Under the pieces are notes generated by a model that saw only the letters and a program-made list of their open reading frames with translations, was not told the DNA's origin and made no database searches. Of a stretch of 18,425 nt of DNA, positions 3,337 to 18,425 are shown in pieces. Each line of letters opens with the position of its first letter. The stretch's first letter is position 1. A program made the position numbers and the translations under genes. The stretch is from a virus: UHGV virus genome UHGV-2152132; one strand, 5' to 3'.

Positions 3337-3359
3337 GCACGAAACCTCATGGATGATTC

Positions 3360-3388: not shown

Positions 3389-3506
3389 ATTTTAACCGAA
3401 TTCAACTGTTTTATCATTGATTAGAGCGAATTTGGTAGATCTTCGAGGTGTATGATAATCGAGAAGAGATGTGAATTATTTAGCTGATATGACCGACAGC
3501 TTTCGT

Positions 3507-3556
3507 TATGTGGACTCAATGTCCCCATTTGTAAATGGCTATGCTTAGTCCACATA
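3507..3556. repeat. 50-bp dyad-symmetric site centred on GT (candidate serine-recombinase att/res site or operator)
   Basis: TATGTGGACT caatgtcc CCATTT GT AAATGG ctatgctt AGTCCACATA. There is a perfect 10-bp outer inverted repeat (3507-3516 / 3547-3556) and a perfect 6-bp inner inverted repeat (3525-3530 / 3533-3538) around the central GT at 3531-3532. It lies between the integrase stop and the recombinase start. No T-tract follows on either strand, so it is not a canonical terminator. Confidence 0.6.
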
Positions 3557-3618
3557 GGTTAATGGTGTGATTATTAATTCTTTAACTAAATCAAGATAGT
3601 TAATCCATCATGGGAGAG

Positions 3619-4848: not shown

Positions 4849-4946
4849 GTTTGGGACCCTCGATTTTAGGACCCATCTTCGTGGGTCCCATTCAGGGTGC
4901 CATAACTCGTAGTTCTCAGCAATTCTCACTAGACTACAATAGACGT

Positions 4947-5010: not shown

Positions 5011-5059
5011 TATTTGGTGGAGCTGGCGGGAGTTGAACCCGCGTCCGAAATTCCTACAT
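5011..5059 (-). repeat. Displaced copy of the tmRNA 3' end (att core); direct repeat of 17362-17410
   Basis: tggtggagctggcgggagttgaacccgcgtccgaaattcctacat (5015-5059) is identical to 17366-17410. The 4 upstream bases (tatt) are also shared, giving 49 bp. Identity stops at 5060 (a) versus 17411 (c). Confidence 0.92.
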
Positions 5060-5144
5060 ACCATTTTTAGTATAGTAAAAATAGTAATTTATGTTTTAAA
5101 ACAAAGAATTAGTTTTTTGTTGTGTTTGCCCGTTTTATACATTT

Positions 5145-6404
5145 TTAACTCTCCGCCGCCAAATTGCCGCCATCAGGTAGATGCTCATGCTTCATCATTT
5201 GGTGGATAAGAACTTCTACTTTTCTGAAGGTCGTATTGTCATAGTACTCAACAAGTGATTCATCGAAATCCTCTATCCAACCTTTTGCTGGGCCATTTGT
5301 TTGATATCTGACGGCAGTTGGTGAGTGGAAGTTGGGAGTAGCCTTTAAAGTGCTAAACACAGCCCATGATACTGGGTTAGTCACTTTAAATATTCTCTTC
5401 AATTCAGGGCAGTACAACGTGTTTGGTACAGTTATTCGTTCCATTTTAGGGGGTAAGATTACATTAATACCGATGTCACTATCTTTTTGATTAAGTATTT
5501 TTGTCGAACGATACGATATTCCAGAAATATCCTTGTTGCTATCACTGCTAATCCATTGCATTAATAGGTTTGGAATAATGTATTCTTTGTGAAAATTTGC
5601 ATGTTCATGATCTTTTGTATAGTTACAGGCCAATACTAAAGGCCATGCGATTAGTTTTGAAACCTTATCATTAATCGGGTCTGAGAAATCACTATAATTT
5701 TCATTGTTGTATTCATCTATGCGTTCAGGCTCAAATGAAAATGAATGCTCACTTGGAGTGGAACGTAGTGCTGACGTTAGGTTGTATCCGAGGTCTAGTA
5801 TTCTAATTTGTGATGATTCGTCTTCAGTAATAAATGATGATATATACAGCTTATCGAAATCTGGTTTTCCCATCTCTTGCCAGCAAACAAATATTGATGT
5901 CCCAAGATATAGACATGGTAAACCTGAAACTGAGAAGCGTTGTGCGCTTACCAAATGTCTTTGACTAAAAGGAATGTGGAATAATTCTTCTCTATTTTTT
6001 AGTATGTTTTCACTTTTCCTAACCCGAAATAACGGAGTTCGTCTATTACAAAGTTTTGTTAACGGAACCGTCATTTGATAAATGTGGTTCTTCATTGCTG
6101 GTGAACCTATTATAGCTTGGTTGAAAGTATTATAGGCTTCTTTAATATTACCGTTAAGATAATGGGTTAACGTTTCAGATATTTTATTGGAGAATGTTGT
6201 GATTGAAATCGATCTTTTTTTTACCTCTTTTATTGTTTCGTTGTCTGGATAGTCCTTTCTTATTTTATCAATAGCTTCAAGATAACAATCAATCCTGTTT
6301 TTAAAGTTGGATACAATGTCGCCATTGGCCTTGAATGGGGGTTGAAGTAGTTCATATTGTAATAATGAATCTGATATTTCTTTCAGTTCTGAATATTTGC
6401 GCAT
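5145..6404 (-). CDS. RES-domain protein (419 aa), candidate NAD+-targeting toxin/abortive-infection effector; prophage cargo
   Basis: LFRVRKSE...ELFHIPFSQRHLVSAQRFSVSGLPCLYLGTSIFVCWQEMGKP matches the RES-domain core (Arg in xRFx, G.P.LYL, Glu). ISGISYRSTKILNQKDSDIGINVILPP supplies the conserved Ser and the following NxxxF/L strand. A ~130-aa helical N-terminal region and a ~90-aa C-terminal extension are unassigned. The ATG at 6404 is 10 nt after the int stop on the same strand. GC is lower than in the neighbouring phage genes (22/60 at 5221-5280). Confidence 0.62.
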   Translation of the reverse strand: MRKYSELKEISDSLLQYELLQPPFKANGDIVSNFKNRIDCYLEAIDKIRKDYPDNETIKEVKKRSISITTFSNKISETLTHYLNGNIKEAYNTFNQAIIGSPAMKNHIYQMTVPLTKLCNRRTPLFRVRKSENILKNREELFHIPFSQRHLVSAQRFSVSGLPCLYLGTSIFVCWQEMGKPDFDKLYISSFITEDESSQIRILDLGYNLTSALRSTPSEHSFSFEPERIDEYNNENYSDFSDPINDKVSKLIAWPLVLACNYTKDHEHANFHKEYIIPNLLMQWISSDSNKDISGISYRSTKILNQKDSDIGINVILPPKMERITVPNTLYCPELKRIFKVTNPVSWAVFSTLKATPNFHSPTAVRYQTNGPAKGWIEDFDESLVEYYDNTTFRKVEVLIHQMMKHEHLPDGGNLAAES

Positions 6405-6414
6405 GAGAATTATT

Positions 6415-7431
6415 TCAATTAAGGTTGATTAATGGATTCTTAGTCACAGCATCTTCGAGATGTTCTGGAGAAAAATGTGCATATATCATTGTCATTTTAA
6501 TATCAGTGTGACCCAAGATTTCTTTAAGTACCAGTATGTTTCCGCCGTTCATCATAAAGTGACTGGCGAATGTATGACGCAGAACGTGGGTACATTGACC
6601 TTCCGGCAGCTCAATACCGGCCCTCTTTACTGCTCGTTCAAAAGCTTTTCTGCATGGAGTGAATAATTTTCCTCTCTTTTTGGGGAGTTCGTCATACAGA
6701 TCCTGTGATATTGGCACTGTTCTGTTTTTCTTGCCCTTAGTCTTGGTGTAAGTGATGCGGTATTTTGACAACTGGTGTCCCTGTAGGTTTTCGGCTTCAC
6801 TCCATCGCGCGCCGGTGGCCAGGCAGATTTTTGTAATCAAAAGCAGGCTGGGGCTTTGAGAATCAGCGCAGGCATCCAGCAGACGTTTAATTTCTTCCGG
6901 GGTCAGGAACGCCAGTTCACCCTCAGCAATTTTAAATGTTGGCAGCCCGGCAAGTGGGTTGGGGGCTGACCAATGGCCCAGCTTTTTCAGTGTACCAAAT
7001 ACCGATGATAGGTTACGCTGTTCAAGGTTTACCGTGCGGGGCTTAACGGGCGACATAAGCGTGCCATCTTCATTTCGCACTTCACCTTTTAGCCGTGCTT
7101 CGCGGTATTTCGTAAAGTCACCGGCTGTCAGTTCTGAGGCGATGGGATCGCCTAGACCATTACAGATAATTTTAAGTTTCGCCATGAGGCGCTTGGGGTC
7201 TGCGAGTGTCTGACCGTACAGGGAATACCAAAGCTCAATTAATTCTGATAGGCGTCGCCGATCATCCTTTTCTCCTAACCACGGTTTTTTGTTCACTTCT
7301 TCCATTGTGAAGCTTTCAAACGCAATAGCTTCGCCTTTGGTAGCAAATTGCTTACGCACGCGCTTGCCATTGCGTCCATTGGGATAGCACTCACACAACC
7401 ATTTTCCGTTCGGCTGTTTTCTGATGGTCAT
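6415..7431 (-). CDS. int: Tyrosine integrase, P2/186 family
   Basis: 338 aa. MTIRKQPNGKWLCECYPNGRNGKRVRKQFATKGEA closely parallels my recollection of the 186 Int N-terminus. Catalytic motifs are ATGARWSEAE, HVLRHTFASHFMMNGGNILVLKEILGH and MTMIYAHF. Its ATG lies 1 nt after the cI stop. Confidence 0.92.
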   Translation of the reverse strand: MTIRKQPNGKWLCECYPNGRNGKRVRKQFATKGEAIAFESFTMEEVNKKPWLGEKDDRRRLSELIELWYSLYGQTLADPKRLMAKLKIICNGLGDPIASELTAGDFTKYREARLKGEVRNEDGTLMSPVKPRTVNLEQRNLSSVFGTLKKLGHWSAPNPLAGLPTFKIAEGELAFLTPEEIKRLLDACADSQSPSLLLITKICLATGARWSEAENLQGHQLSKYRITYTKTKGKKNRTVPISQDLYDELPKKRGKLFTPCRKAFERAVKRAGIELPEGQCTHVLRHTFASHFMMNGGNILVLKEILGHTDIKMTMIYAHFSPEHLEDAVTKNPLINLN

Positions 7432-7432
7432 T

Positions 7433-8065
7433 TCAAAGGCTCTTAATGATTTTCAGTGCGCGGCCTACTACCTCAATGTCATCCAGGCCGCACTCAAACG
7501 ATGAATCATCCTGATGCACTACTAATTTGTTTCCCGGGAGTCGAGTCAATTTAACGATGCTTTTTATCCCGTCGATATCGACTAACCACATACCATTTAC
7601 TGGTGGTGTTTGGTTGCGATCTATTAAATAAGAATCACCAGAAGTAGTCACCAGCAGTAGGTTGCTTGAGTCTGAGGGGAGTATGCTGCTATCAATGATT
7701 GCTTTTCCAGCATCGACCAATAAACCACCGTTGAGAGTCGCCTTGTCAATTTCAGGAGATACTAGTTCAGAAAGAGGTACAACCTTGCTGGAGTTCACGG
7801 AATTGATATTTTTTTTAGGTTCAATGTTTGGACCTGGCTCCCCCTGTCCGGTGGTTAGCCACAGTAAAGAAACTCCTGTTTCCAAGGCGCACTGAATCAC
7901 CCACTCTGCAGGAAAACTATCTCTTAAGTATCTGTTTGCCATGGTGCTTTTTGATGCGCCTAAGTGATCGCAAAGTTGCTGTCTGGACTTGAAATCATAG
8001 GCTGCCATTAGTCTATGGATAGCCTCTCTTCCCCCTGTATTCTCTCCAACCTTTACCTGTATCAT
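7433..8065 (-). CDS. cI: Immunity repressor, 186 CI-like
   Basis: 210 aa. The N-terminal HTH region (QQLCDHLGASKSTMANRYLR...CALETGVSLLWLTTGQGEP) resembles 186 CI as I recall it. It sits upstream of int and divergent from apl. AGGA lies 8-9 nt upstream of the ATG at 8065. Confidence 0.8.
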   Translation of the reverse strand: MIQVKVGENTGGREAIHRLMAAYDFKSRQQLCDHLGASKSTMANRYLRDSFPAEWVIQCALETGVSLLWLTTGQGEPGPNIEPKKNINSVNSSKVVPLSELVSPEIDKATLNGGLLVDAGKAIIDSSILPSDSSNLLLVTTSGDSYLIDRNQTPPVNGMWLVDIDGIKSIVKLTRLPGNKLVVHQDDSSFECGLDDIEVVGRALKIIKSL

Positions 8066-8077
8066 TTTTTAATCCTG

Positions 8078-8106
8078 TTGACGTATCAAATATTGGATCG
8101 TAGTAT
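8078..8106 (+). promoter_or_regulatory. pR-like early lytic promoter (drives apl-cII)
   Basis: TTGACG (8078-8083), exactly 17 nt of spacer, TAGTAT (8101-8106). One copy of the 17-bp repeat fills the spacer and the second copy sits at the predicted start site. Confidence 0.55.
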
Positions 8107-8129
8107 CTCGATGTATCAAATATTGAATC
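8083..8129. promoter_or_regulatory. Two 17-bp direct repeats GTATCAAATATTGRATC, 30 bp apart (candidate CI operators)
   Basis: Copy 1 is at 8083-8099 (GTATCAAATATTGGATC) and copy 2 at 8113-8129 (GTATCAAATATTGAATC), matching 16/17. Each contains a short dyad TCAA-N3-TTGR. They overlap the pR-like promoter. Confidence 0.5.
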
Positions 8130-8131
8130 AA
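8102..8131 (-). promoter_or_regulatory. Possible pL-like lysogenic promoter, face-to-face with pR
   Basis: On the minus strand: TTGATT (8131-8126), 18-nt spacer, GATACT (8107-8102), each 4/6. It would give transcripts convergent and overlapping with pR, as known for P2 Pe/Pc and 186 pR/pL. This call is weak. Confidence 0.3.
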
Positions 8132-8132
8132 G

Positions 8133-8160
8133 TAAAACGAGATAAAACGACGTAAACCAA
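8133..8160 (+). promoter_or_regulatory. Three 10-bp-phased direct repeats TAAAACGA / TAAAACGA / TAAACCAA (candidate Apl/Cox boxes)
   Basis: Copies at 8133-8140, 8143-8150 and 8153-8160, between the pR start and the apl RBS. They resemble the P2 Cox-box style TTAAAGNCA, which is arranged as helically phased direct repeats. Confidence 0.4.
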
Positions 8161-8184
8161 ACCTTAATCGGGAGATACTGCACT

Positions 8185-8427
8185 ATGAGCACTGATATTT
8201 CAATTCGTGTACCAAAAGAGATGGCTACGCCTGCAGAGTTCGCGGAATGGGAAGGTATCTCCCGCGGCTCCGTGTATCAAAAAATTCACCATGGTCAGCT
8301 TGCTAAATACATGGTCAAGAAAGAAAAAAACAAAGGCCGCGTAAGCCTGCGTTATTTAATGTACAAAACCGATCAGGTCCGTGAATCCCTCGGTCATTCC
8401 AACTTCCGCGTCATTGTTGGTAAGTAA
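8185..8427 (+). CDS. apl: Apl/Cox-like excisionase and transcriptional regulator
   Basis: 80 aa. It is the first gene of the rightward operon, divergent from cI. The C-terminal ESLGHSNFRVIVGK resembles the 186 Apl C-terminus (LGHSRFQLVIGA as I recall). GGGAG lies 9 nt upstream of the ATG. Confidence 0.7.
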   Translation: MSTDISIRVPKEMATPAEFAEWEGISRGSVYQKIHHGQLAKYMVKKEKNKGRVSLRYLMYKTDQVRESLGHSNFRVIVGK

Positions 8428-8459
8428 GTTCAATTATGAGAACTTTCTAAGGGGGTAGC

Positions 8460-8855
8460 ATGTTTGATTATAAGATTTCCAAACACCCGCATTTTGATGA
8501 AGCCTGTAGAGCTTTTGCACTTCGTCACAATATGGCGAAGCTGGCAGAACGTGCAGGAATGAATGTCCAGACTCTGCGAAACAAACTCAACCCAGATCAA
8601 CCGCATCAGCTCAATGCGCCAGATATCTGGCTACTTACCGATCTGACGGAAGATTCAACGCTGGTAGACGGTTTTCTGGCACAGATTCACTGCCTGCCAT
8701 GTGTACCGATTAATGAGGTGGCAAAAGAGAAACTGCCACATTACGTCATGAGTGCAACCGCAGAGATCGGGCGTGTTGCTGCAGGTGCGGTATCCGTTCC
8801 GACGTTCCTCGTTGCCGCTTCTCCCAAACCAACGTTTAAGAAAATGCAGAGGTAA
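8460..8855 (+). pseudogene. cII: cII (186-type) truncated at about codon 112 and fused to foreign sequence
   Basis: Residues 1-112 (MFDYKISKHPHFDEACRAFALRHNMAKLAERAGMNVQTLRNKLNP...GAVS) track 186 CII as I recall it (169 aa). The remaining 19 aa (VPTFLVAASPKPTFKKMQR) read through antisense tail-fibre sequence and the invertase crossover site. Confidence 0.7.
8819..8844. promoter_or_regulatory. Hin/Gin/Cin/Pin-type 26-bp crossover site (invertase-proximal, orphan)
   Basis: TTCTCCCAAACC AA CGTTTAAGAAAA compares with hixL TTCTTGAAAACC AA GGTTTTTGATAA. There are two imperfect inverted 12-bp half-sites around an AA core, 55 bp upstream of the invertase ATG. No second inverted copy was found in the window. 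Confidence 0.7.
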
Positions 8856-8899
8856 CAGCTAACTGGCATCATCTCCGGTTTTTATTCAGGGGGATGATC

Positions 8900-9466
8900 A
8901 TGCTTATTGGCTATGTACGCGTGTCAACAAATGACCAGAACACCGATTTGCAACGTAATGCACTGAACTGCGCGGGATGTGAGCAGATTTTTGAGGACAA
9001 AATCAGTGGCACTAAGTCCGACAGACCGGGGCTGAAAAAACTACTCAGGACACTATCGGCAGGAGACACGCTGGTTGTCTGGAAGCTGGACAGGTTGGGG
9101 CGCAGTATGCGGCATCTTGTTACGCTGATAGAAGAGTTGCGCCAGCGTGGTGTGAATTTCAGAAGCCTGACTGACAGTATTGATACCAGTACCCCAATGG
9201 GCCGTTTCTTTTTTCATGTCATGGGTGCCCTGGCTGAAATGGAACGCGAACTGATAGTTGAACGTACCAGGGCAGGGCTGGCTGCAGCTCGTGCCAAAGG
9301 CAGAGTAGGTGGACGCCGTCCTAAGTTGACCACCGAACAGTGGGCACAGATTGGGCGTTTACTCGAGGCCGGAGAATCAAGACAGCGTATTGCACTGATT
9401 TTTGATGTAGGCGTTTCTACCATTTATAGAAAATTTCCGGCAAATAAGATCAATGAATCCCCCTGA
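8900..9466 (+). CDS. Site-specific DNA invertase, Hin/Gin/Cin/Pin family (small serine recombinase)
   Basis: MLIGYVRVSTNDQNTDLQRNAL...DTLVVWKLDRLGRS...MGRFFFHVMGALAEMERELIVERT...GVSTIYRKFP is near-collinear with Pin/Hin. I prefer the start at 8900 (family N-terminus, GGGGG 6-7 nt upstream). The track ORF starts at 8894. Confidence 0.92.
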   Translation: MLIGYVRVSTNDQNTDLQRNALNCAGCEQIFEDKISGTKSDRPGLKKLLRTLSAGDTLVVWKLDRLGRSMRHLVTLIEELRQRGVNFRSLTDSIDTSTPMGRFFFHVMGALAEMERELIVERTRAGLAAARAKGRVGGRRPKLTTEQWAQIGRLLEAGESRQRIALIFDVGVSTIYRKFPANKINESP

Positions 9467-9514
9467 ATCAGCATTATGTTGATTATCCCTGCAAGCAGAC
9501 AAATACCGTTATTT

Positions 9515-9572
9515 TGTGTGAATAACGACACAACTGCGCTTAGCTGTTTGTCAGGCACAATCACTTCAACAT
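9515..9572 (+). promoter_or_regulatory. PF-like Ogr-dependent late promoter
   Basis: TGT-N12-ACA dyad at 9515-9532 (TGTgtgaataacgacACA), the activator-binding element of P2-family late promoters, which is centred near -55. A candidate -10 CAACAT at 9567-9572 puts the start about 55 bp from the dyad centre and about 30 nt upstream of the FI ATG. Confidence 0.5.
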
Positions 9573-9608
9573 AGGGCGAAGCCTAATCCAATCAGGAGGT
9601 TCGCCACT

Positions 9609-10781
9609 ATGGCTCAGGATTACCACCACGGGGTGCGCGTTGTTGAAGTCAACGAAGGCACCCGATCTATTACCACGGTGAGCACCGCCATCGTGGGTAT
9701 GGTCTGCACGGGCGATGATGCCGATGCAAAAATGTTTCCTCTTAATAAACCCGTGCTGATCACTGATGTGCTGACTGCCAGCGGTAAAGCGGGTGAGTCA
9801 GGTACTCTGGCCCGTTCGCTGGATGCCATCGCTGACCAGGCAAAACCCGTGACCATTGTTGTGCGTGTGCCGCAGGGTGAAACGGAAGACGAAACCACGA
9901 CCAATATCATCGGCGCAGTGACTGCTGAAGGTAAAAAAACAGGTATGAAAGCCCTGTTATCTGCCCAGTCACAGCTCGGCGTTAAACCGCGCATTCTCGG
10001 CGTGCCAGGCCACGACACCAAGGCGGTAGCTACTGAGTTGCTGAGCGTGGCGCAAAGCCTGCGTGGATTTGCTTACCTGTCAGCGTATGGCTGCAAGACA
10101 GTGCAGGAGGCGATCACTTACCGCGAAAACTTCAGCCAGCGCGAAGGGATGCTGATCTGGCCTGACTTTACTGGCTGGGACACGGTGCTGAATGCCGAAG
10201 CAACGGCATATGCCACCGCCCGTGCGCTTGGTCTGCGCGCCAAAATTGACGAGCAGACCGGATGGCACAAAAGCCTGTCCAACGTGGGCGTGAACGGTGT
10301 CACCGGAATTTCTGCAGATGTGTTCTGGGATCTGCAGGACCCGGCAACCGATGCAGGTCTGCTGAACCAGAACGACGTCACCACGCTTGTGCGTAAAGAC
10401 GGTTTCCGCTTCTGGGGTTCCCGCTGCCTGAGTGATGACCCGCTCTTTGCCTTCGAAAACTACACCCGCACGGCGCAGGTGCTGATGGACACGATGGCAG
10501 AAGCACACATGTGGGCGGTGGATAAACCGCTTAACCCGTCGCTGGCCCGCGACATTATCGAAGGTATCCGCGCCAAAATGCGCAGCCTGGTCAGTCAGGG
10601 CTATCTCATTGGTGGTGATTGCTGGCTGGATGAGTCGGTGAACGACAAAGACACGCTGAAAGCCGGAAAACTCACCATCGACTACGACTACACGCCAGTG
10701 CCGCCACTTGAAAACCTGATGCTGCGTCAGCGCATCACCGATCAGTACCTGGTGAATTTCGCCAGCCAGGTCAGCGCGTAA
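9609..10781 (+). CDS. FI: Contractile tail sheath protein (P2 gpFI)
   Basis: 390 aa. [54 protein letters not shown] matches the P2 FI N-terminus as recalled. AGGAGG RBS. Confidence 0.93.
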
Positions 10782-10790
10782 GGGGACAAC

Positions 10791-11306
10791 ATGGCTTTAC
10801 CACGCAAATTAAAACACCTGAACCTGTTTAACGACGGGAACAACTGGCAGGGGATCGTTGAATCGCTGACGCTGCCGAAATTTACCCGCAAATATGAGAA
10901 GTATCGCGGCGGCGGAATGCCGGGTGCGGTGGATGTGGATCTGGGGCTTGATGACAGTGCGCTGGACACAGAATTTTCCATTGGTGGTACTGAATTGCTG
11001 CTGTTTAAACAGATGGGTAAAGCCACGGTGGATGGCATCCAGCTGCGCTTTACCGGCTCTATTCAGCGTGACGATACCGGGGAAGTGCAGGCCGTGGAGC
11101 TTGTCGTGCGTGGACGTCACAAAGAAGTGGATTCCGGCGAGTGGAAGACGGGCGAAAGCAACACCACCAAAGTGACCAGTACCAACAGCTACGCGAAGCT
11201 GACCATCAATGGTGAGGTGCTCTATGAAGTGGACCTTATCAACATGGTGGAAATTGTGGACGGTGTGGACCTGATGGAAGCGCACCGCAACGCCCTCGGC
11301 CTCTGA
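10791..11306 (+). CDS. FII: Tail tube protein (P2 gpFII)
   Basis: 171 aa. MALPRKLKHLNLFNDG...LPKFTRKYEKYRGGGMPGAVDVDLGLDD parallels P2 FII. AAGGGG RBS. Confidence 0.92.
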   Translation: MALPRKLKHLNLFNDGNNWQGIVESLTLPKFTRKYEKYRGGGMPGAVDVDLGLDDSALDTEFSIGGTELLLFKQMGKATVDGIQLRFTGSIQRDDTGEVQAVELVVRGRHKEVDSGEWKTGESNTTKVTSTNSYAKLTINGEVLYEVDLINMVEIVDGVDLMEAHRNALGL

Positions 11307-11360
11307 TATATCTGAACGGCGCGGGATACCGCGCCAGAACCCAATTGACAGGACAGCAAA

Positions 11361-11663
11361 ATGAGCGATAAGCAGACTGAAAAGACCATTCAACTGGATA
11401 CCCCCATCAAGCGCGGTAAAACAGAAATCACCGAAATTGTGCTGCGTAAACCGCAGTCCGGTGCGCTGCGCGGTACACGCCTGCAGGCCATTATGGATAT
11501 GGATGTAAACGCGATGATGACCGTGATCCCCCGCATCTCCAGTCCGGCACTGACTGCACAGGAAATTGCAGAGATGGACCCGGCAGATCTCACTGCCATG
11601 TCGGTTGAGGTTGTCACTTTTTTGTTGAAGAAGTCGGTGCTTGCCGGTTTACCGACAGCCTGA
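11361..11663 (+). CDS. E: Tail assembly chaperone gpE (zero-frame product)
   Basis: 100 aa, positioned between FII and T. Contains the conserved slippery T TTT TTG. Confidence 0.85.
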   Translation: MSDKQTEKTIQLDTPIKRGKTEITEIVLRKPQSGALRGTRLQAIMDMDVNAMMTVIPRISSPALTAQEIAEMDPADLTAMSVEVVTFLLKKSVLAGLPTA

Positions 11664-11797
11664 CGGTTGACGATCTGGTGGCAGATATCGCCACCATTTT
11701 TCACTGGCCGCCATCCGTTACTGACGTTATGCCGCTGACCGAAGTGCTGGAATGGCGGTATAAAGCGATTCAGAGAAGCGGGGCCAACGATGAGTGA
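11361..11797 (+). CDS. E+E': Tail assembly chaperone gpE+E' (programmed -1 frameshift product)
   Basis: A -1 slip at 11618-11624 continues as VEEVGACRFTDSLTVDDLVADIATIFHWPPSVTDVMPLTEVLEWRYKAIQRSGANDE, ending at TGA 11795-11797. ADIATIFHWPP...RSG matches the P2 E' tail as recalled. The total is about 145 aa. Confidence 0.8.
11618..11624 (+). other. Slippery heptamer T TTT TTG for the E/E+E' -1 frameshift
   Basis: I checked the frame by hand. 11618 is the third position of codon T86, then TTT (F87) and TTG (L88). The -1 frame stays open for 57 codons. Confidence 0.8.
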
Positions 11798-14700
11798 TAA
11801 CAACCTGCGTCTGCAGGTCATTCTTAATGCGGTTGACAAGCTCACCCGCCCATTTCGATCTGCGCAGGCCAGTTCAAGAGAACTGGCTGCTGCTGTCAAA
11901 AAATCCCGCGATGCAATAAAGCAGCTTGATCAGGCCGGGAGCAGTCTGGACAGCTTCCGAAAGCTGCAGGCAGAAAATCAGAAATTAGGCGACAGGCTGA
12001 ACTATGCCCGCCAGCGTGCAAATTTGCTCAGTCAGGAACTGGGAGCGATGGGGCCGCCTTCGCAACGTCAGGTTGTTGCTCTGGGCCGTCAACGGCTGGC
12101 TGTTCAGCGCCTGGAAGAACGCCAGAAAAAGCTGCAGCAGCAGACGGCGCTTGTGCGTGCTGAACTGTACCGGGCGGGAATTTCTGCGAAAGACGATGCG
12201 GGAGCAACTGCCCGTTTAGCCCGTGAAACATCACGTTATAACCAGGAACTTTCGAAACAGGAGGCGCGGCTGAAGCGACTGGGGGAAGCTCAGCGCAGGA
12301 TGAATGCAGCGCGTGCCAGTTATGCCCGTTCGCTGGAGGTGCGTGATCGTATTGCAGGTGCCGGAGCCACCACCACGGCTGCAGGGCTGGCAATGGGTGC
12401 GCCAGTGATGGCGGCAGTAAAAAGCTATACCAGCATGGAAGATGCCATGAAAGGTGTGGCAAAGCAGGTCAATGGTCTGCGTGACGATAATGGCAACCGC
12501 ACTGCACGTTTTTATGAAATGCAGGATGCCATCAAGGCTGCCAGCGAACAGTTGCCGATGGAAAACGGTGCGGTGGACTTCGCTGCACTGGTTGAAGGTG
12601 GTGCGCGCATGAACGTCGCAAACCCTGACGACAGCTGGGAAGATCAGAAACGTGACCTGCTGGCCTTCGCCAGTACGGCAGCAAAGGCGGCAACAGCCTT
12701 TGAGCTGCCAGCGGATGAACTGTCAGAAAGTCTGGGGAAAATCGCCCAGCTCTACAAAATCCCCACCCGCAATATTGAACAGCTCGGTGATGCGCTGAAC
12801 TATCTGGATGATAACGCCATGTCGAAAGGGGCAGACATCATTGATGTGATGCAACGTCTGGGCGGTGTGGCTGACCGTCTGGATTATCGTAAAGCGGCGG
12901 CGCTGGGTTCCACCTTCCTGACACTGGGCGCTGCGCCAGAGGTTGCAGCCAGTGCAGCAAACGCGATGGTGCGTGAATTGTCCATTGCCACCATGCAAAG
13001 CAAGAGTTTCTTTGAAGGGATGAATCTGCTGAAACTCAATCCTGAAGTGATTGAAAAGCAGATGACGAAGGATGCGATGGGAACCATCCAGCGCGTGCTG
13101 GAGAAGGTAAACGCGCTGCCGCAGGACAAGCGCCTGTCTGCCATGACTATGTTGTTTGGTAAAGAGTTTGGCGATGACGCGGCGAAACTGGCAAACAACC
13201 TGCCGGAACTGCAGCGTCAGTTAAAACTGACAGCGGGCAATGATGCGCTTGGCTCCATGCAAAAAGAATCCGACATTAACAAGGATTCACTTTCTGCGCA
13301 GTGGTTGCTGGTCAAAACCGGAGCGCAGAACACCTTCAGCAGCCTGGGCGAAACGCTGCGCCAGCCGCTGATGGATATTCTGTACACGGTGAAAAGCGTC
13401 ACGGGGGCGTTGCGTCGCTGGGTGGAAGCTAACCCGGAACTGACAGGCACACTGATGAAAGCATCGGCTGTTGTGGCTGCGGTTACCGTCGGCCTCGGCA
13501 CCTTAGCGGTGGCGCTGGCTGCAGTGCTGGGGCCGCTGGCAGTGATCCGTCTGGGATTCTCTGTGTTGGGTATCAAAACGTTATCTTCCGTTACGGCAGC
13601 AGTAACTCGAACCAGCAGCGCGTTGTCCTGGCTGGCTGGCGCACCACTGGCACTGCTGCGACGCGGGCTTGCTTCATCGGGCAACGCCGCAGGTTTACTT
13701 ACTGCGCCGTTGTCGTCTTTGCGCCGCACGGCATCACTGACGGGAAATGTCCTGAAAACTGTAGCAGGTGCGCCGGTTGCACTTTTGCGGTCTGGATTAT
13801 CCGGTTTACGTGCTGTTGCTGTGATGTTTATGAATCCTCTGGCGGTACTGCGCGGTGGACTGGCCGCCGCAGGCACGGTGCTGCGAGTACTGGCATCTGG
13901 TCCACTGGCGATGCTGCGCGTTGCCCTGTATGCCATATCTGGTCTGTTAGGTGCTCTGCTCAGTCCGATAGGTCTTGTGGTTACTGCACTGGCGGGCGTG
14001 GCGCTGGTTGTCTGGAAATACTGGCAACCCATCACCGCATTTCTCGGTGGCGTGGTGGAAGGATTCAAAGCGGCGGCAGGTCCCATCAGTGCAGCGTTCG
14101 AACCGCTTAAGCCCGTGTTCCAGTGGATTGGCGACAAAGTGCAGGCGCTGTGGGGCTGGTTTACTGATCTGCTGACGCCCGTTAAGTCGACCTCTGCCGA
14201 ACTGCAGAGCGCAGCGGCAATGGGGCGGCGATTCGGGGAGGCACTGGCGGAAGGGCTGAATATGGTCATGCATCCGCTGGACTCCCTGAAATCCGGCGTT
14301 TCCTGGTTGCTGGAGAAGCTCGGCATTGTCAGTAAAGAGGCCGCAAAGGCAAAACTGCCGGAAAGCGTGACGCGTCAGCAACCTGCGACGGTGAATGCAG
14401 ACGGTAAAGTGATGATGCCATCGGGTGGTTTTCCATCATGGGGATATGGCTTTGCGGGGATGTATGACAGCGGCGGGTATATCCCGCGCGGGCAGTTTGG
14501 CATCGTCGGTGAAAACGGGCCGGAAATTGTTAACGGCCCGGCAAATGTGACCAGCCGGAGAAATACAGCTGCACTGGCTGCCGTTGTTGCCGGAATGATG
14601 GGCGTTGCTGCCGCGCCAGCAGAGCTTCCACCGTTGCACCCCTTGGCACTTCCCGCGAAAGGTGGAGAAGCAATTGTGAGTCGCGCAGCCACTGTGCCAC

Positions 14701-14867
14701 TCGTTCAACGGATTGAGGCACCGACGCAGATCATCATTCAGACGCAGCCAGGACAAAGTGCGCAGGATATTGCGCGGGAGGTGGCACGCCAGCTTGATGA
14801 ACGTGAACGCAGGCTGAAGGCAAAAGCCAGGAGTAACTACAGCGATCAGGGGGGATACGACGCATGA
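11790..14867 (+). CDS. T: Tail tape measure protein (P2 gpT-like)
   Basis: 1025 aa. It has a coiled-coil-like N-terminus, a central hydrophobic repeat block and a Gly-rich C-terminus. It lies directly after E/E', and its ATG overlaps the E' stop (gATGAGTGA). Confidence 0.9.
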   Translation: MSDNNLRLQVILNAVDKLTRPFRSAQASSRELAAAVKKSRDAIKQLDQAGSSLDSFRKLQAENQKLGDRLNYARQRANLLSQELGAMGPPSQRQVVALGRQRLAVQRLEERQKKLQQQTALVRAELYRAGISAKDDAGATARLARETSRYNQELSKQEARLKRLGEAQRRMNAARASYARSLEVRDRIAGAGATTTAAGLAMGAPVMAAVKSYTSMEDAMKGVAKQVNGLRDDNGNRTARFYEMQDAIKAASEQLPMENGAVDFAALVEGGARMNVANPDDSWEDQKRDLLAFASTAAKAATAFELPADELSESLGKIAQLYKIPTRNIEQLGDALNYLDDNAMSKGADIIDVMQRLGGVADRLDYRKAAALGSTFLTLGAAPEVAASAANAMVRELSIATMQSKSFFEGMNLLKLNPEVIEKQMTKDAMGTIQRVLEKVNALPQDKRLSAMTMLFGKEFGDDAAKLANNLPELQRQLKLTAGNDALGSMQKESDINKDSLSAQWLLVKTGAQNTFSSLGETLRQPLMDILYTVKSVTGALRRWVEANPELTGTLMKASAVVAAVTVGLGTLAVALAAVLGPLAVIRLGFSVLGIKTLSSVTAAVTRTSSALSWLAGAPLALLRRGLASSGNAAGLLTAPLSSLRRTASLTGNVLKTVAGAPVALLRSGLSGLRAVAVMFMNPLAVLRGGLAAAGTVLRVLASGPLAMLRVALYAISGLLGALLSPIGLVVTALAGVALVVWKYWQPITAFLGGVVEGFKAAAGPISAAFEPLKPVFQWIGDKVQALWGWFTDLLTPVKSTSAELQSAAAMGRRFGEALAEGLNMVMHPLDSLKSGVSWLLEKLGIVSKEAAKAKLPESVTRQQPATVNADGKVMMPSGGFPSWGYGFAGMYDSGGYIPRGQFGIVGENGPEIVNGPANVTSRRNTAALAAVVAGMMGVAAAPAELPPLHPLALPAKGGEAIVSRAATVPLVQRIEAPTQIIIQTQPGQSAQDIAREVARQLDERERRLKAKARSNYSDQGGYDA

Positions 14868-15349
14868 TGATGGTGCTGGGATTGTACGTGTTTATGCTGC
14901 GCACCGTTCCGTATCAGGAACTGCAGTATCAACGCAGCTGGCGACATGCGGCAAACAGTCGGGTAAACCGACGTCCGTCCACGCAGTTTCTGGGACCGGA
15001 AAACGACATGCTGACGCTTTCCGGTGTTCTTATGCCGGAAATAACAGGCGGCAGGCTGTCGTTGCTGGCACTGGAGCAGATGGCAGAACAGGGGAAAGCA
15101 TGGCCCCTGATTGAAGGCAGCGGCACGATTTACGGCATGTATGTGATTGAGGGACTGAATCAGACTAAAACGGAGTTTTTCCGCGACGGTATGCCGCGCC
15201 GGATTGAGTTCACCCTGTCGCTCAAACGAGTGGATGAATCCCTGTCCGATATGTTCGGTGATCTCAGTGCGCAACTGAATAATCTGCAGGACACGGCAAC
15301 GTCTGCCTTAAGCGATATCAGTAAAACGGTGGGAGGGCTGCTGTCGTGA
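14864..15349 (+). CDS. U: Tail protein gpU
   Basis: 161 aa. MMMVLGLYVFMLRTVPYQ...LSGVLMPEITGG...AWPLIEGSGTIYGMYVIEGL...RRIEFTLSLKRVDE parallels P2 gpU. ATGA overlap with the T stop. Confidence 0.9.
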   Translation: MMMVLGLYVFMLRTVPYQELQYQRSWRHAANSRVNRRPSTQFLGPENDMLTLSGVLMPEITGGRLSLLALEQMAEQGKAWPLIEGSGTIYGMYVIEGLNQTKTEFFRDGMPRRIEFTLSLKRVDESLSDMFGDLSAQLNNLQDTATSALSDISKTVGGLLS

Positions 15350-16446
15350 ATTTCAGCTCTGAACTGCTTAACAAAGGCAACAAAACTCCCGCATTCAGCA
15401 TCAGTATTGAGGGCAGGGATATCACCACTGTGCTGGATAACCGCCTGATGAGTTTGACGCTGACGGATAACCGGGGCTTTGAAGCGGACCAGCTTGATCT
15501 GGAGCTGGATGACGCTGACGGAAAAATCGTGCTGCCGCGCCGTGGTGCGGTTATTACGCTGGCGCTGGGCTGGAAGGGGCAGCCGCTTTTCCCGAAAGGG
15601 GCATTCACAGTGGACGAGATTGAACACACTGGCGCACCGGACCGCCTGACTATCCGGGCGCGAAGTGCTGATTTTCGGGAAACGCTGAATACCCGCCGTG
15701 AAAAATCGTGGCATAAGACCACCGTCGGGGAAGTGGTGAAGGAAATAGCCGCGCGGCACAAGCTGAAGATGGCCCTGGGTAAAGACCTGTCGGATAAGCC
15801 CGTGGAGCATATAGACCAGACTAATGAGAGTGACGGCAGTTTTCTGATGCGGCTGGCGCGACAGTACGGTGCCATCGCGTCGGTGAAAAATGGCAATCTG
15901 TTATTCATCCGGCAGGGGCAGGGCAAAAGCGCCACTGGTAAACCTCTGCCAGTGATCACTATCACACGCAAGGACGGCGACAGTCACCGATTTACCCTGG
16001 CAGATCGCGGAGCCTACACGGGCGTAATTGCCAGCTGGTTGCATACCCGCGAACCTGCGAAGAAAGAAAGCACCACGGTGAAGCGTAAGCGCAGAACTAA
16101 GAAGCAGAAGAAAGAGCCGGAAGCGAAGCAGGGCGATTACCTGGTGGGTACGGATGAAAACGTGCTGGTACTTAATCGCACTTATGCCAACCGGAGCAAC
16201 GCTGAACGGGCAGCGAAAATGCAGTGGGAACGCCTGCAACGCGGCGTTGCGTCATTCTCGCTACAACTGGCGGAAGGGCGGGCAGATCTTTACACGGAAA
16301 TGCCAGTGAAAGTTAGTGGCTTTAAACAACCGATAGATGATGCGGAATGGACCATTACGACTCTGACTCATACCGTCAGCCCGGATAATGGTTTTACGAC
16401 CAGTATTGAACTCGAAGTGAAGATTGATGATCTTGAAATGGAATAA
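15346..16446 (+). CDS. D: Tail protein gpD (late control D family)
   Basis: 366 aa with a GTG start overlapping the U stop (GTGA). GGGAGGG RBS at 15331-15337. Contains a Phage_GPD-like segment (SDGSFLMRLARQYGAIASVKNGNLLF). Confidence 0.88.
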   Translation: MNFSSELLNKGNKTPAFSISIEGRDITTVLDNRLMSLTLTDNRGFEADQLDLELDDADGKIVLPRRGAVITLALGWKGQPLFPKGAFTVDEIEHTGAPDRLTIRARSADFRETLNTRREKSWHKTTVGEVVKEIAARHKLKMALGKDLSDKPVEHIDQTNESDGSFLMRLARQYGAIASVKNGNLLFIRQGQGKSATGKPLPVITITRKDGDSHRFTLADRGAYTGVIASWLHTREPAKKESTTVKRKRRTKKQKKEPEAKQGDYLVGTDENVLVLNRTYANRSNAERAAKMQWERLQRGVASFSLQLAEGRADLYTEMPVKVSGFKQPIDDAEWTITTLTHTVSPDNGFTTSIELEVKIDDLEME

Positions 16447-16514
16447 AGTGTTCTCAATATTGATATTTTGTGTATCATTACAATGATTCTGATAGCAAAG
16501 GTAGGGATCTGGAT

Positions 16515-16733
16515 ATGATGAATTGTCCAAAGTGTGGTCATGCGGCACACACAAGGAGCAGTTTTCAAGTAACTGAAAGCACCAAAGAGCGTTACTGCCA
16601 GTGCCAAAATATTAACTGCGGGAGCACTTTTGTTACCCATGAAACAGTGGTCCGGTTTATTGTGACACCCGCACTGATTGCTACTGCTCCTCCACATCCA
16701 TTGCCAGGTGGTCAGGGGCATATGAATTTTTGA
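16515..16733 (+). CDS. ogr: Ogr zinc-finger late-gene transcriptional activator
   Basis: Starting at the ATG at 16515 gives 72 aa with Cys4, Cys7, Cys30 and Cys35, exactly the P2 Ogr spacing (MMNCPKCGHAAHTRSS...KERYCQCQNINCGSTF). The track ORF (16470) adds 15 unsupported residues. A possible -10 TACAAT lies at 16479-16484. Confidence 0.9.
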   Translation: MMNCPKCGHAAHTRSSFQVTESTKERYCQCQNINCGSTFVTHETVVRFIVTPALIATAPPHPLPGGQGHMNF

Positions 16734-16740
16734 GAAAGAG

Positions 16741-16764
16741 AACCTGCTACGGCAGGTTTTTATT
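16741..16764 (+). terminator. Rho-independent terminator after ogr, overlapping the stop of the convergent gene
   Basis: AACCTGC tacg GCAGGTT followed by TTTTATT. The 7-bp stem is at 16741-16747 / 16752-16758. Confidence 0.6.
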
Positions 16765-17242
16765 CATCTGGGATCTCACCCGTTTCAAGAAAATGTATAA
16801 AGCCAGGCTCATCTATGATGATTGTGCCTTTCATCCTGGCTGCCGATACTTTTGATGGGCCTGCATTGTAACCGCAACAGAGCATCTGAAGGCTTTGGGT
16901 TACAGAGGTTCTTACCGTTAATCCTTGTTCATTCGCCTTATCAACCAATCTTTCTTTATCTGCTTTCTTAAATCCGGTGAAACACACATCGAATGTATTT
17001 TTTTTCGGACCAGACTGCTTAGTGAGATGTGAGTAGTTTTCGGGGAGGAATGACGCGCATTCCTGAATGGCTTGTTCTGGTGAATCGTACTGTTTAAGAA
17101 TGCGGTCTTTTCGGAAGGTTTTTATTCGATCGGTGTTCTTACAAATGCCCTGTATATGATTTTCGCTATAACTGATGCTCTGTATTGAGTGAACTCCGAT
17201 ACGACCATTTGCATTGATGTAAACAAAGTGAAGTTCTTCCAT
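16760..17242 (-). CDS. WYL-domain plus BRCT-domain protein (160 aa), prophage cargo
   Basis: The N-terminal HFVYINANGRIGVHSIQSISYSENHIQGICKNTDRIKTFRKDRI fits the WYL-domain pattern (F.Y...G....R.i......yi.GyC......R.FR.DRI). The C-terminal FDVCFTGFKKADKERLVDKANEQGLTVRTSVTQSLQMLCCGYNAGPSKVSAARMKGTIIIDEPGFIHFL fits BRCT as in the LigA C-terminus (F..TG......R........G..V..SVS..t..Lv.G...GSK...A...G..ii.E..F). AGAGG lies 7 nt upstream of the ATG. No HTH is evident. Confidence 0.6.
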   Translation of the reverse strand: MEELHFVYINANGRIGVHSIQSISYSENHIQGICKNTDRIKTFRKDRILKQYDSPEQAIQECASFLPENYSHLTKQSGPKKNTFDVCFTGFKKADKERLVDKANEQGLTVRTSVTQSLQMLCCGYNAGPSKVSAARMKGTIIIDEPGFIHFLETGEIPDE

Positions 17243-17270
17243 GTGAAACCTCTTTGCATGATTTCAAGAG

Positions 17271-17305
17271 GGCGACAGGCAAGATAGACGCAAAAGTCTG
17301 TCGCC
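17271..17305. repeat. 8-bp perfect inverted repeat GGCGACAG-N19-CTGTCGCC upstream of the WYL-BRCT gene
   Basis: Arms at 17271-17278 and 17298-17305, 29-63 nt upstream of the ATG at 17242. It could be an operator or a 5'-UTR hairpin. Confidence 0.45.
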
Positions 17306-17325
17306 ATTTTGCCGCCACTACCAAA

Positions 17326-17355
17326 GAAAAAGGGGCTACGCTTTCACGTAACCCC
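17326..17355 (-). terminator. Rho-independent terminator of the intact ssrA (supplied by the prophage side of the junction)
   Basis: Minus strand reads GGGGTTACG tgaaag CGTAGCCCC followed by TTTTTC. It is a 9-bp stem with one G-U pair, starting 11 nt after the tmRNA 3' end. Confidence 0.7.
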
Positions 17356-17365
17356 TTGTTTTATT

Positions 17366-17728
17366 TGGTGGAGCTGGCGGGAGTTGAACCCGCGTCCGAA
17401 ATTCCTACATCCTCGGTACTACATGCTTAGTCAGTCTTTATATTCGCTTGCCAGCTGCGGACGGACACGCCACTAACAAACTAGCCTGATTAAGTTTTAA
17501 CGCTTCAACCCCAGGCAGGGCTTCCACGCGATCTCTTTTGGGTTTGACCTCTCTTGATCCCCGTCCTAAGAGCGGAGGCTAGGGAGAGAGGGCTCTAAGC
17601 AGGTTATTAAGCTGCTAAAGCGTAGTTTTCGTCGTTTGCGACTATTTTTTGCGGCTTTTTACGAGGCCAACCGCCCCTCGGCATGCACCTTGGGTTTCGC
17701 AAATCCCGTCGAATCCAGAATCAGCCCC
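17366..17728 (-). ncRNA. ssrA: tmRNA (SsrA), complete, 363 nt
   Basis: The reverse complement starts GGGGCTGATTCTGGATTCGACGGGATTTGCGAAACCC and ends GGTTCAACTCCCGCCAGCTCCACCA. It contains the tag reading frame. The tRNA-like acceptor and T-arm are at the 3' end. Confidence 0.97.
17607..17639 (-). other. tmRNA tag-peptide reading frame ANDENYALAA plus stop
   Basis: Minus strand reads GCA AAC GAC GAA AAC TAC GCT TTA GCA GCT TAA. Confidence 0.95.
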
Positions 17729-17942: not shown

Positions 17943-18425
17943 TTAACGGTGGGCGTTTTTCATGATACGTGCTTTATCCACCTGCCATTCGCGCTCTTTG
18001 ATATCTGAACGTTTATCGTGCTGTTTCTTACCTTTGGCGACGCCGATTTTCACTTTGCACCAGGCATTTTTCCAGTACAGGGAGAGCGCCACTACGGTAT
18101 AGCCTTCTCGATTGACGCGACCGTACAATGAGTCCAGTTCGCGCTGGTTGAGAAGTAACTTGCGGGTACGGGTAGGATCGCACACCACATGCGTGGAGGC
18201 CACGGCCATTGGCGTGATGTTAGCGCCAAACAGAAATGCCTCTCCGTCACGCAGAAGGACGTAGCTGTCGCTGATATTGGCTTTTCCTGCGCGCAGGGAT
18301 TTAACTTCCCAGCCTTGCAGGGCAAGTCCCGCTTCGAACTCTTCTTCGATAAAGTATTCGTGACGGGCGCGCTTGTTAAGCGCGATGGTCGCTGAACCAG
18401 GTTTATGTGCTTTTTTCTTCGTCAT
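17943..18425 (-). CDS. smpB: SsrA-binding protein SmpB
   Basis: 160 aa, [48 protein letters not shown]...; matches E. coli SmpB as I recall it. The ATG is at the window edge (18423-18425), and it has the canonical position upstream of ssrA. Confidence 0.97.

Follow-up and report, generated by a model that had tools for sequence, protein, structure and literature searches.

A WYL-BRCT protein without a helix-turn-helix domain encoded next to attP in the lysogeny module of a P2-like prophage

Almost all known WYL domains are the sensory part of transcription factors that switch on defense or DNA-damage genes. In the best-described regulators of this kind, CapW, BrxR, PafBC and DriD, a Sm-like barrel with an FRxDRI-type motif stands between an N-terminal winged helix-turn-helix (HTH) and a WCX dimerization domain. 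BRCT domains of the DNA-binding class are exemplified by RFC1, where conserved TG, K and K residues make a phosphate pocket. The combination of the two domains appears as a list entry, WYL+BRCT, in Makarova et al. 2014 (PMC4012209), where WYL domains were proposed to sense nucleotides or nucleic-acid fragments; the protein described here has the same domain pair, but its phage context, synteny with cI and membrane-anchored variants are not described there. In the characterized regulators, the ssDNA-binding part is the WYL barrel, and PafBC, DriD and CapW sense ssDNA through it after DNA damage (PMC11662680, PMC12041258). A literature search for BRCT in combination with anti-phage activity, P2-like phages, prophages or defense, or WYL found no functional study of any member of the family considered here, and in Rousset et al. 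2022, WYL appears in a reference only.

We analyzed a stretch of 18,425 nucleotides of the virus genome UHGV-2152132 (hereafter, the window). On the minus strand, positions 16760-17242 encode a soluble, two-domain protein of 160 aa and 18 kDa, taken from the ORF list, and a Shine-Dalgarno-like AGAGG, read from the sequence, lies 7-11 nt 5' of its ATG (17249-17253, minus strand). The peptides quoted in the initial annotation are all found in this ORF, as checked against the ORF list and the sequence, and the architecture proposed there, a WYL half followed by a BRCT half without an HTH, holds: profiles of homologs and the predicted model agree on it. The placement at the ogr-att end of the prophage is also correct. 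The WYL-BRCT gene is convergent with ogr, the late-gene activator (16515-16733, plus strand; PF04606, 1.5e-20, and RefSeq annotation), and the two are separated by a hairpin (16741-16758) that is likely to be a bidirectional terminator. On its other side lies ssrA, located by a tmRNA search (17366-17728), the 3' end of which carries the att core (17362-17410), a 49-bp exact direct repeat of positions 5011-5059 at the other prophage end.

The protein is a member of PHROG 2561, which it matches over its full length (E = 2.2e-77, residues 1-159 on profile positions 2-167 of 167), and RefSeq lists it under a WP_000391794-type entry as 'BRCT domain-containing protein'. A word-indexed search yielded 122 homologs at E <= 1e-3, and a profile of the WYL half matches 707 clusters (50% identity clustering). 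This family is already catalogued, and its function is addressed here by prediction from sequence. Identical or near-identical copies are also present in the phages 500465-1 and Cartapus (98.8% identity in the latter). The gene is an accessory (moron-type) component of the P2-like lysogeny module, because its GC content is 41% compared to 54-57% in the late genes of the same window, phage 186 has no gene between B (the ogr homolog) and attP, and the gene is found, as identical or near-identical copies, in 171 of 5426 complete E. coli genomes.

The N-terminal domain (residues 1-53; 17084-17242, minus strand) is a five-stranded Sm-like barrel with the conserved motif KTFRKDRI. The Pfam WYL profile (PF13280) gave no match to the window protein alone at E <= 10; it matched 5 of 37 homologs (best E = 1.5e-5) and 27 of 57 longer relatives (best 2.8e-10), and the relative at locus L043 scored 27.5 bits against a cut-off of 21.8 bits. 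A PDB sequence search with the N-terminal profile produced only a non-significant match to PafBC (E = 1.8), so that a fold search was needed to reveal the WYL domain. Because BRCT matches, which made up most of the results, swamped the fold search with the whole model, the N-terminal half was modelled separately. Modelled alone, it forms the Sm-like five-stranded barrel, and its nearest solved structures are WYL domains, the best matches being those of CapW, BrxR, PafBC and DriD; these nearest structures belong to ssDNA sensors (PMC11662680, PMC12041258). In the window protein, unlike in these regulators, WYL leads, starting at residue 3 of the predicted model, and BRCT trails, with no WCX. 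Between them is a two-helix linker (residues 54-80; 17003-17083, minus strand; helices at 55-62 and 67-73), where model confidence is lowest (residues 71-80, pLDDT 69). Neither Pfam nor other profile searches matched an HTH family in the 160-aa protein, and the model leaves no space for one, the chain being taken up by the barrel (1-53), the two helices (55-73) and BRCT (85-154). Lacking both the winged HTH and the WCX domain, the protein cannot work as a conventional transcription factor.

The C-terminal part is a single BRCT domain of the LigA/RFC1 type (about residues 83-157; 16772-16996, minus strand), assigned by both sequence match and fold. The window protein scores 19.5 bits with PF00533, just below the Pfam threshold of 21.3, and the BRCT profile is matched by 32 of the 37 homologs. 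RFC1 and LigA are the nearest sequences; the FTG and GPSK of the window protein align with FTG and GPKK in yeast Rfc1 and with GQSK in human RFC1, and PDB 2k7f, a model of the RFC1 BRCT with dsDNA, is among the fold-search matches. T89, G90 and K131 are invariant among the homologs and K96 is conserved in 90% or more, which reproduces the phosphate-pocket pattern of the DNA-binding BRCT class (T-G, then a basic residue some 7 positions on, and a Lys following G-x-S/K). The TG...K...K pattern is shared with the C-terminal BRCT of LigA and the BRCT of RFC1, but the ligase and clamp-loader domains of those proteins are absent, and binding of DNA or a 5'-phosphate by the window protein is only predicted. 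The protein is not basic (pI 6.95 for the whole, 5.8 for the BRCT half), which is unusual for a DNA binder and counts against binding of DNA ends.

The names attached to the relatives of this protein, 'DNA ligase' in PHROG 2561 and several phage records and 'putative exonuclease' in Cartapus, would make it a ligase or an exonuclease subunit, which is almost certainly incorrect. The match to the LigA model TIGR00575 amounts to 19.6 bits against a cut-off of 444 and covers only model positions 549-650, and that to the DEDDh exonuclease model NF004719 is 26.1 bits against 389, confined to positions 229-307 (BRCT). Judging by the predicted model, 160 aa is too small for adenylation, OB or exonuclease domains; the adenylation, OB, Zn-finger and HhH domains of an NAD-dependent LigA are all missing from the protein, as is a DnaQ-like exonuclease domain, and the only matches in a viral structure library were ligase BRCTs and small proteins without a name. 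Given that the match to ligase covers BRCT only, the name of PHROG 2561 is a transfer from the BRCT segment, and both names are unfounded for proteins of this type. With no HTH and no catalytic domain, the WYL-BRCT protein is neither a transcription factor nor a ligase nor an exonuclease. A similarly partial likeness involves the PADLOC candidate PDC-S48, whose C-terminal ~70 residues resemble the window BRCT (1.8e-7): the match is limited to positions 335-406 of the model's 411, as it also is for the longer relatives, so that a full-length match is ruled out, and the confinement of the PADLOC likeness to the BRCT segment counts against a defense role.

The region upstream of the gene contains the 8-bp inverted repeat reported in the initial annotation, which is exact: GGCGACAG (17305-17298), an N19 spacer and CTGTCGCC (17278-17271), 29-63 nt 5' of the ATG. 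Its left arm (17298-17305) coincides with the second unit of a tandem repeat, GGCGGCAAAATGGCGACA (17299-17320, minus strand), which has an 11-bp period and likely represents integrase arm sites in the attP arm that faces ogr. A counterpart, GGCGGCAATTTGGCGGCG, lies on the int-side arm (5154-5171, minus strand), overlapping the 3' end of a RES-like gene, and has equivalents in Cartapus and Yersinia phage MLG42. Without mismatches, the pattern GGCGRCR-N4-GGCGRCR occurs only at the two att arms, with 0.06 chance matches expected, and the ogr-side tandem is kept in 10 of 10 ssrA-type relatives, from loci in 7 genera. The right arm of the inverted repeat, a third, inverted copy of GGCGACAG (17268-17278, plus strand), is a probable third arm-type site specific to the E. 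coli lineage: among the ssrA-type loci compared, it is present only in the window, phage 500465-1 and Cartapus and is missing from seven relatives from other genera, despite a protein about 70% identical and the same att site.

This layout is the same as in phage 186, whose predicted Int arm sites comprise two in tandem plus one inverted next to B (ogr) and another tandem pair towards int, and the core motifs are related (TGGCGR in the window versus the reverse complement of the 186 consensus YAYCGCCAYTY). The differences are that 186 targets a tRNA-Ile gene and the window prophage ssrA, that the third site and the pair are 20 bp apart in the window and 7 bp in 186, and that in the window an inserted gene separates the ogr terminator from the arm sites. 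Tandem repeats of about 11 bp, located on both core arms and conserved along with the same Int and att, are what arm-type sites are expected to look like. Hence the upstream inverted repeat most likely consists of predicted Int arm-type sites of attP rather than a dedicated operator of the WYL-BRCT gene. An operator or RNA hairpin governing this gene would fit the exactness of the repeat and its location, 29-63 nt from the ATG and flanked by the terminator and the ribosome-binding site, but is improbable: the right arm is missing in the seven other-genus relatives, the left arm belongs to a conserved tandem that is found on the opposite att arm too and resembles the 186 Int arm consensus, and the leader RNA folds no better than shuffled sequences (z = -1.66 for the window and -0.32 for the Yersinia phage). 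Perfect 8-bp inverted repeats with 3-30-nt spacers are, moreover, frequent in the window, 22 in number (~17 distinct) against ~10 in shuffles. We set aside a role of the WYL-BRCT protein as a recombination accessory factor because the ends left by tyrosine recombinases carry 5'-OH, not 5'-phosphate, and because relatives often have the gene at a distance from att.

Between the arm sites and the att core, the phage supplies a strong intrinsic terminator (17330-17357, minus strand; a 12-bp stem followed by a T run), the equivalent of the 'predicted terminator of lysogenic operon' in the phage 186 record. In the lysogen, ssrA transcription stops at this terminator, as does that of the cI-int operon in the free phage, and it separates both transcripts from the WYL-BRCT gene. 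In the ssrA-integrating lineage of E. coli and Yersinia, the gene sits beyond int (6415-7431 in the window, with the PF24624 N-terminal domain) and attP, and as a result of integration it ends up just downstream of host ssrA, behind this terminator. Between the terminator and the ATG, a consensus scan detected no sigma-70 promoter and no conserved one was apparent by eye, so that expression in this lysogen is presumptive.

In relatives elsewhere, the gene is linked to the immunity repressor. In 24 of 55 loci, a co-oriented gene for a CI-type repressor precedes it by one to three genes, and in 15 of these 24 the two are directly adjacent (median gap 11 bp); annotated examples come from Mannheimia PHL101, Vibrio PV94 and a Burkholderia phage. 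Where cI is directly upstream, the WYL-BRCT gene is predicted to be co-transcribed behind the immunity repressor. In one gene call, P0129, a repressor S24 domain runs straight into a WYL domain. The upstream repressors fall into three C-terminal classes, S24, 186-type and XRE, and 6 of the 10 repressors tested are of the self-cleaving S24 type. Hydrophobic N- or C-terminal segments are present in about 35 of the 57 longer relatives, and three of the cI-adjacent loci (L043, L048 and L052) encode membrane-anchored relatives. Outside prophages, defense-like neighbors include an AbiGi-like gene (L023) and an McrB_N+HNH gene (L042). A 'WALPxAF...EGD' domain, fused or adjacent in marine relatives, has no match in Pfam, PADLOC or the PDB. 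The P2-like Vibrio phage K139 has the order cI, orf2, glo, int, in which orf2, encoding a BRCT-domain protein, occupies the same slot behind cI, next to glo, annotated for phage exclusion; the K139 protein shares BRCT alone (40% identity over 43 residues), its N-terminal region being different and non-WYL.

The initial annotation had suggested that the protein could be an alternative antirepressor in the slot of tum, the gene said to adjoin att on the ogr side in phage 186, or else a partner of the RES-like gene. Whereas the underlying notion of a sensor that combines WYL and BRCT without an HTH survives, and the protein may be a DNA-damage or infection sensor acting without transcription, these specific proposals do not. 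In 186, tum does not adjoin att: it is located at 29082-29522, near the right end of the genome. The reported lack of a LexA box was confirmed, none being found near the WYL-BRCT gene, and the other hallmarks of a Tum-type gene, similarity to Tum or DinI and a position after gene A, are likewise absent (BLASTP against Tum, E = 15). Cartapus has a perfect LexA box, CTGTAAATATAAACAG, before a small ORF and a DinI-like gene at the tum position; therefore, the SOS slot is not empty. The three repressor classes and the 6 of 10 S24-type repressors argue against a single conserved protein contact with CI. As for the RES-like gene (5145-6404, 419 aa), it would abut the WYL-BRCT gene across attP in the circular phage, and the two are adjacent and co-oriented both in Cartapus and when attP is reconstructed from the window. 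A sensor-partner relationship is nevertheless highly unlikely: among 55 other loci, a RES-like gene lies beside WYL-BRCT in one, Cartapus, and is missing from the other 54; the gene order is cI-int-RES-attP-gene in Cartapus and cI-int-attP-gene in MLG42, which has the WYL-BRCT gene but no RES-like gene; a terminator and attP separate the two genes; and the RES assignment itself is faint (PF08808, E = 0.049, no PADLOC match). This missing co-occurrence already largely refutes the partnership.

Among the readings of function, the one we tentatively prefer, as plausible if short of probable, is superinfection exclusion or defense by a protein that is expressed in the lysogen and binds ssDNA and DNA ends with a 5'-phosphate. 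The protein would be made in the lysogen, its WYL domain would hold single-stranded DNA and its BRCT pocket (T89, K96 and K131) an adjacent 5'-phosphorylated duplex end, nick or gap. When a phage enters, the ends of its DNA or its replication intermediates would thus be occupied, and exclusion or defense would result from binding alone. The many membrane-anchored relatives would be positioned where incoming DNA arrives. The K139 cI-orf2-glo-int precedent and the defense-like neighbors at L023 and L042 speak for exclusion, whereas the close linkage to cI is equally compatible with a role in the lysogeny switch. A related, unlikely version is a new kind of temperate-phage protein for immunity or exclusion that has no effector, is produced along with the repressor and in many lineages is tethered to the inner membrane. 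It would block circularization, ligation or replication of incoming or replicating foreign DNA by occupying gaps or ends, such as cohesive ends, that are single-stranded and 5'-phosphorylated; a variant would be a RecA-independent ssDNA sensor feeding the lysogeny switch. No membrane anchor is present in the E. coli protein, which counts against exclusion at the membrane.

Alternatively, in line with the antirepressor idea of the initial annotation, the protein could be an ssDNA-gated regulator of the lysogeny switch, made with the repressor, whose BRCT engages CI or another switch protein: ssDNA arising from damage would bind WYL, and the ensuing BRCT contact would trigger induction or stabilize lysogeny. 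The tight and widespread synteny right behind cI, the joining of S24 and WYL in P0129 and the sensing of ssDNA by WYL domains after DNA damage in PafBC, DriD and CapW all fit, and ICEBs1 offers an analogy, with the repressor gene immR followed by the antirepressor gene immA and int. We consider this rather unlikely, given that the neighboring repressors are of three unrelated C-terminal classes and the S24 majority is already RecA-responsive, that int, attP and a strong terminator separate the gene from cI in the E. coli lineage, that Cartapus retains its LexA-boxed DinI-type operon, that similarity to Tum is lacking and that membrane-anchored relatives are hard to square with action on an operator-bound repressor. 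Still less probable is modulation of host recombination or the SOS response, in which the protein would sit on 5'-phosphate ds/ss junctions at gaps and interfere with RecFOR-type RecA loading or with access of ligase or the clamp loader, dampening spurious SOS induction of the prophage or altering repair. The nearest structures, which imply ssDNA for WYL and an RFC1/LigA type for BRCT, and the predicted expression from the lysogeny module are consistent with such a role; it is, however, purely inferential, the neighborhoods of the examined loci show no link to rec or SOS genes, and the membrane-anchored variants speak against a chromosome-wide function.

The WYL sensor is coupled here to a BRCT of the DNA-end type in place of an HTH. 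Should binding to ssDNA and 5'-phosphate junctions and exclusion of other phages prove true, prophage-encoded immunity would gain a mechanism that works through binding alone. The arrangement of cI followed by a gene for a BRCT-domain protein would be a clear marker for finding further examples, in P2-like phages across many Proteobacteria. Two corrections of annotation can be made now, namely, removal of the 'DNA ligase' and 'exonuclease' labels and assignment of the upstream repeat to attP.

The window covers Escherichia coli DNA surrounding the tmRNA gene ssrA (17366-17728, minus strand) and smpB (17943-18425, minus strand). The 3' end of ssrA is repeated exactly and in direct orientation over 49 bp, at 5011-5059 and 17362-17410, and these two att copies bound a P2/186-like prophage that measures only 12.3 kb (5060-17361). 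This prophage encompasses a RES-like gene (5145-6404, minus strand), int (6415-7431), a 186-type cI (7433-8065), cII (8460-8855), a Hin/Gin-type DNA invertase gene directly after cII (8894-9466), the tail genes FI to D (9609-16446, with the tail sheath gene from 9609), ogr (16515-16733) and the 160-aa WYL-BRCT ORF, located, as initially annotated, at 16760-17242 on the minus strand. The prophage lacks genes for replication, head, lysis, baseplate and tail fibres; E. coli S88 carries a full-length version of the same prophage, with an AIPR-family gene. In the cI-cII intergenic region (8080-8129), GAYGTATCAAATATTGRATC occurs twice, 30 bp apart; a role in the switch, as operators or Apl-type sites, is probable. 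Past the distal att copy, a second integrated element (1-4929) encodes a P4-type tyrosine integrase (3619-4929), a large serine recombinase (1780-3336) and, at 894-1790 and 1-897, two ParB_N/RepB-like proteins, which suggests that the ssrA site is occupied in tandem.

The proposed combination of WYL and BRCT domains without an HTH is supported at the level of the family. In the Pfam search with the window protein alone, BRCT fell slightly below the threshold and WYL was not matched. The family search yielded 122 homologues (E <= 1e-3), and among 37 aligned diverse homologues, BRCT was matched by 32 and WYL by 5; PHROG 2561 is matched over the full protein length (2.2e-77). The BRCT domain is nearest in sequence to those of RFC1 and NAD-dependent ligases. 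T89, G90 and K131 show no variation in the 37-member alignment, and K96 very little; these residues correspond to the TG and GxxK elements of RFC1, which form its 5'-phosphate pocket. The window gene encodes a WYL-BRCT protein with neither an HTH nor a catalytic domain; the labels "DNA ligase" and "exonuclease" were rejected, being supported by the BRCT segment alone. The family and its architecture are already catalogued, the combination of WYL and BRCT being listed by Makarova et al. 2014 (PMC4012209), but uncharacterised, and our literature search found no functional work on this combination. The novel side is the coupling of a WYL sensor to BRCT in place of an HTH.

With a profile of the WYL half, 707 clusters (50% identity) were retrieved. 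Of 57 longer members, roughly half reach the Pfam threshold for WYL and roughly half that for BRCT, and hydrophobic segments flank the WYL-BRCT module on one side or the other in about 35; the cI-adjacent genes of Pasteurellaceae and one betaproteobacterium are among those encoding such segments. Many relatives have 1-3 predicted transmembrane helices, either preceding or following the module (for example, at loci L043, 7536-8492, L048, 7719-8519, and L052, 7590-8531, and in the proteins P0188, P0191 and P0163), and several of these lie directly behind cI. In marine and MAG relatives, a domain with the motif W-A-L-P-x-A-F ... F-x-E-G-D, which has no Pfam, PADLOC or PDB match, is either an N-terminal fusion partner of the WYL-BRCT protein or the product of an adjoining gene (L017, 7443-8489; L018, 7242-8456; L020, 8502-9098; L038, 2174-3163; L055, 6587-7036).

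We compared the gene neighbourhoods at 55 loci, namely, 7 phage records and 48 of 50 genome loci. A CI-type repressor gene is located 1-3 genes upstream on the same strand at 24 of the 55 loci and directly adjoins the gene at 15 of these (median gap 11 bp). Annotated cases of an upstream repressor are Mannheimia PHL101, Vibrio PV94 and one Burkholderia phage. Complete sister phages carry cI, int, the RES-like gene (where present), attP, WYL-BRCT and convergent ogr, in that order. The WYL-BRCT gene, with a GC content of 41% compared to 54-57% in the late genes, is absent from phage 186, and 171 of 5426 complete E. coli genomes have it. As an accessory gene, it belongs to the lysogeny module of P2-like phages. 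Integration places it downstream of, and on the same strand as, host ssrA, with a strong phage-supplied terminator (17330-17357) between the att core and the gene, and no promoter for it was detected in this lysogen. Two homologues outside prophages directly follow an AbiGi-like gene (Pseudomaricurvus, L023, 7343-7900) and an McrB_N+HNH gene (a Pelagibacteraceae genome, L042, 7245-7988).

The inverted repeat upstream of the gene is present exactly as annotated (GGCGACAG-N19-CTGTCGCC, 29-63 nt 5' of the ATG). We reconstructed attP from both prophage ends and aligned it with those of the sister phages Cartapus and Yersinia MLG42; both arms carry GGCGRCR-N4-GGCGRCR tandems. The window has just two mismatch-free occurrences of this pattern, at 17299-17316 and 5154-5171 and on the minus strand in both cases (0.06 occurrences expected by chance), and the ogr-side tandem is kept in 10 of 10 ssrA-integrating relatives (Escherichia, Yersinia, Erwinia, Klebsiella, Plesiomonas, Tatumella and Citrobacter), among which the right arm of the inverted repeat, CTGTCGCC, is confined to the E. 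coli lineage. The curated record of phage 186 lists predicted Int arm-type sites (consensus YAYCGCCAYTY) on both sides of attP, with three on that of B, the ogr homologue, and two on that of int; in a pattern search, the B side consists of a tandem pair and one inverted copy, and the int side of a tandem pair, the same arrangement as in the window, with a related core motif. Folding of the leader RNA is no better than that of shuffles, and 8-bp inverted repeats are common in the window. Given the specificity of the tandem, its conservation, the precedent of 186 and the lack of a hairpin signal, the inverted repeat is best read, from sequence, as part of attP.

The suggested partnership with the RES-like gene fails on co-occurrence, the two genes lying side by side only in Cartapus among the 55 loci. 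The RES-like gene, directly after int, has a GC content of 35.7%, and its 3' end runs into the int-side arm-type repeats; its 419-aa product shows a full-length match to PHROG 7835 (unknown function), only a faint one to RES (E = 0.049) and none in PADLOC. The comparison with tum does not stand either: the WYL-BRCT protein has no similarity to Tum, and the 186 record contradicts the placement of tum next to att. At the position of the 186 tum operon, Cartapus has a perfect LexA box (CTGTAAATATAAACAG, 3757-3772); the region 3815-4247, which starts 43 bp further on, holds a 62-aa ORF and, behind it, a DinI-like gene. BLAST shows no similarity between this ORF and Tum.

We propose that the WYL-BRCT protein would be produced in lysogens, with the WYL domain binding ssDNA and BRCT a 5'-phosphate end, nick or gap, so that occupancy of foreign DNA could serve exclusion or defence. 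The identity of the protein is nearly certain and the functional part of this reading is weak, such that the reading as a whole is tentative, somewhat short of an even chance; the neutral pI of the protein and the failure to detect a promoter lowered our confidence. The main competing explanation, an ssDNA-gated modulator of the lysogeny switch, is favoured by the cI synteny and by the metagenomic gene call P0129, which continues from a CI-like repressor's S24 peptidase domain directly into WYL and could be a genuine fusion or reflect the loss of a stop codon between neighbouring genes. We nevertheless consider it unlikely, given that the upstream repressors belong to mixed classes (S24 LexA-like in 6 of 10 tested, the others 186-type CI except for one plain XRE), that int, attP and the terminator intervene in this lineage, that many relatives have membrane anchors and that the tum position in Cartapus is still occupied by a LexA-boxed DinI operon.

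The place after cI is taken in Vibrio phage K139 by orf2 (2194-3099, minus strand), followed by the exclusion gene glo. The orf2 product is a 301-aa BRCT-domain protein, but its N-terminal region is repeat-like rather than WYL and similar to that of L055 7056-8222. A BRCT gene following cI may thus be a wider theme among P2-like phages. With its conserved placement behind cI, the frequent membrane anchors and the K139 orf2 parallel, the WYL-BRCT family is a reasonable experimental lead rather than a surprise.
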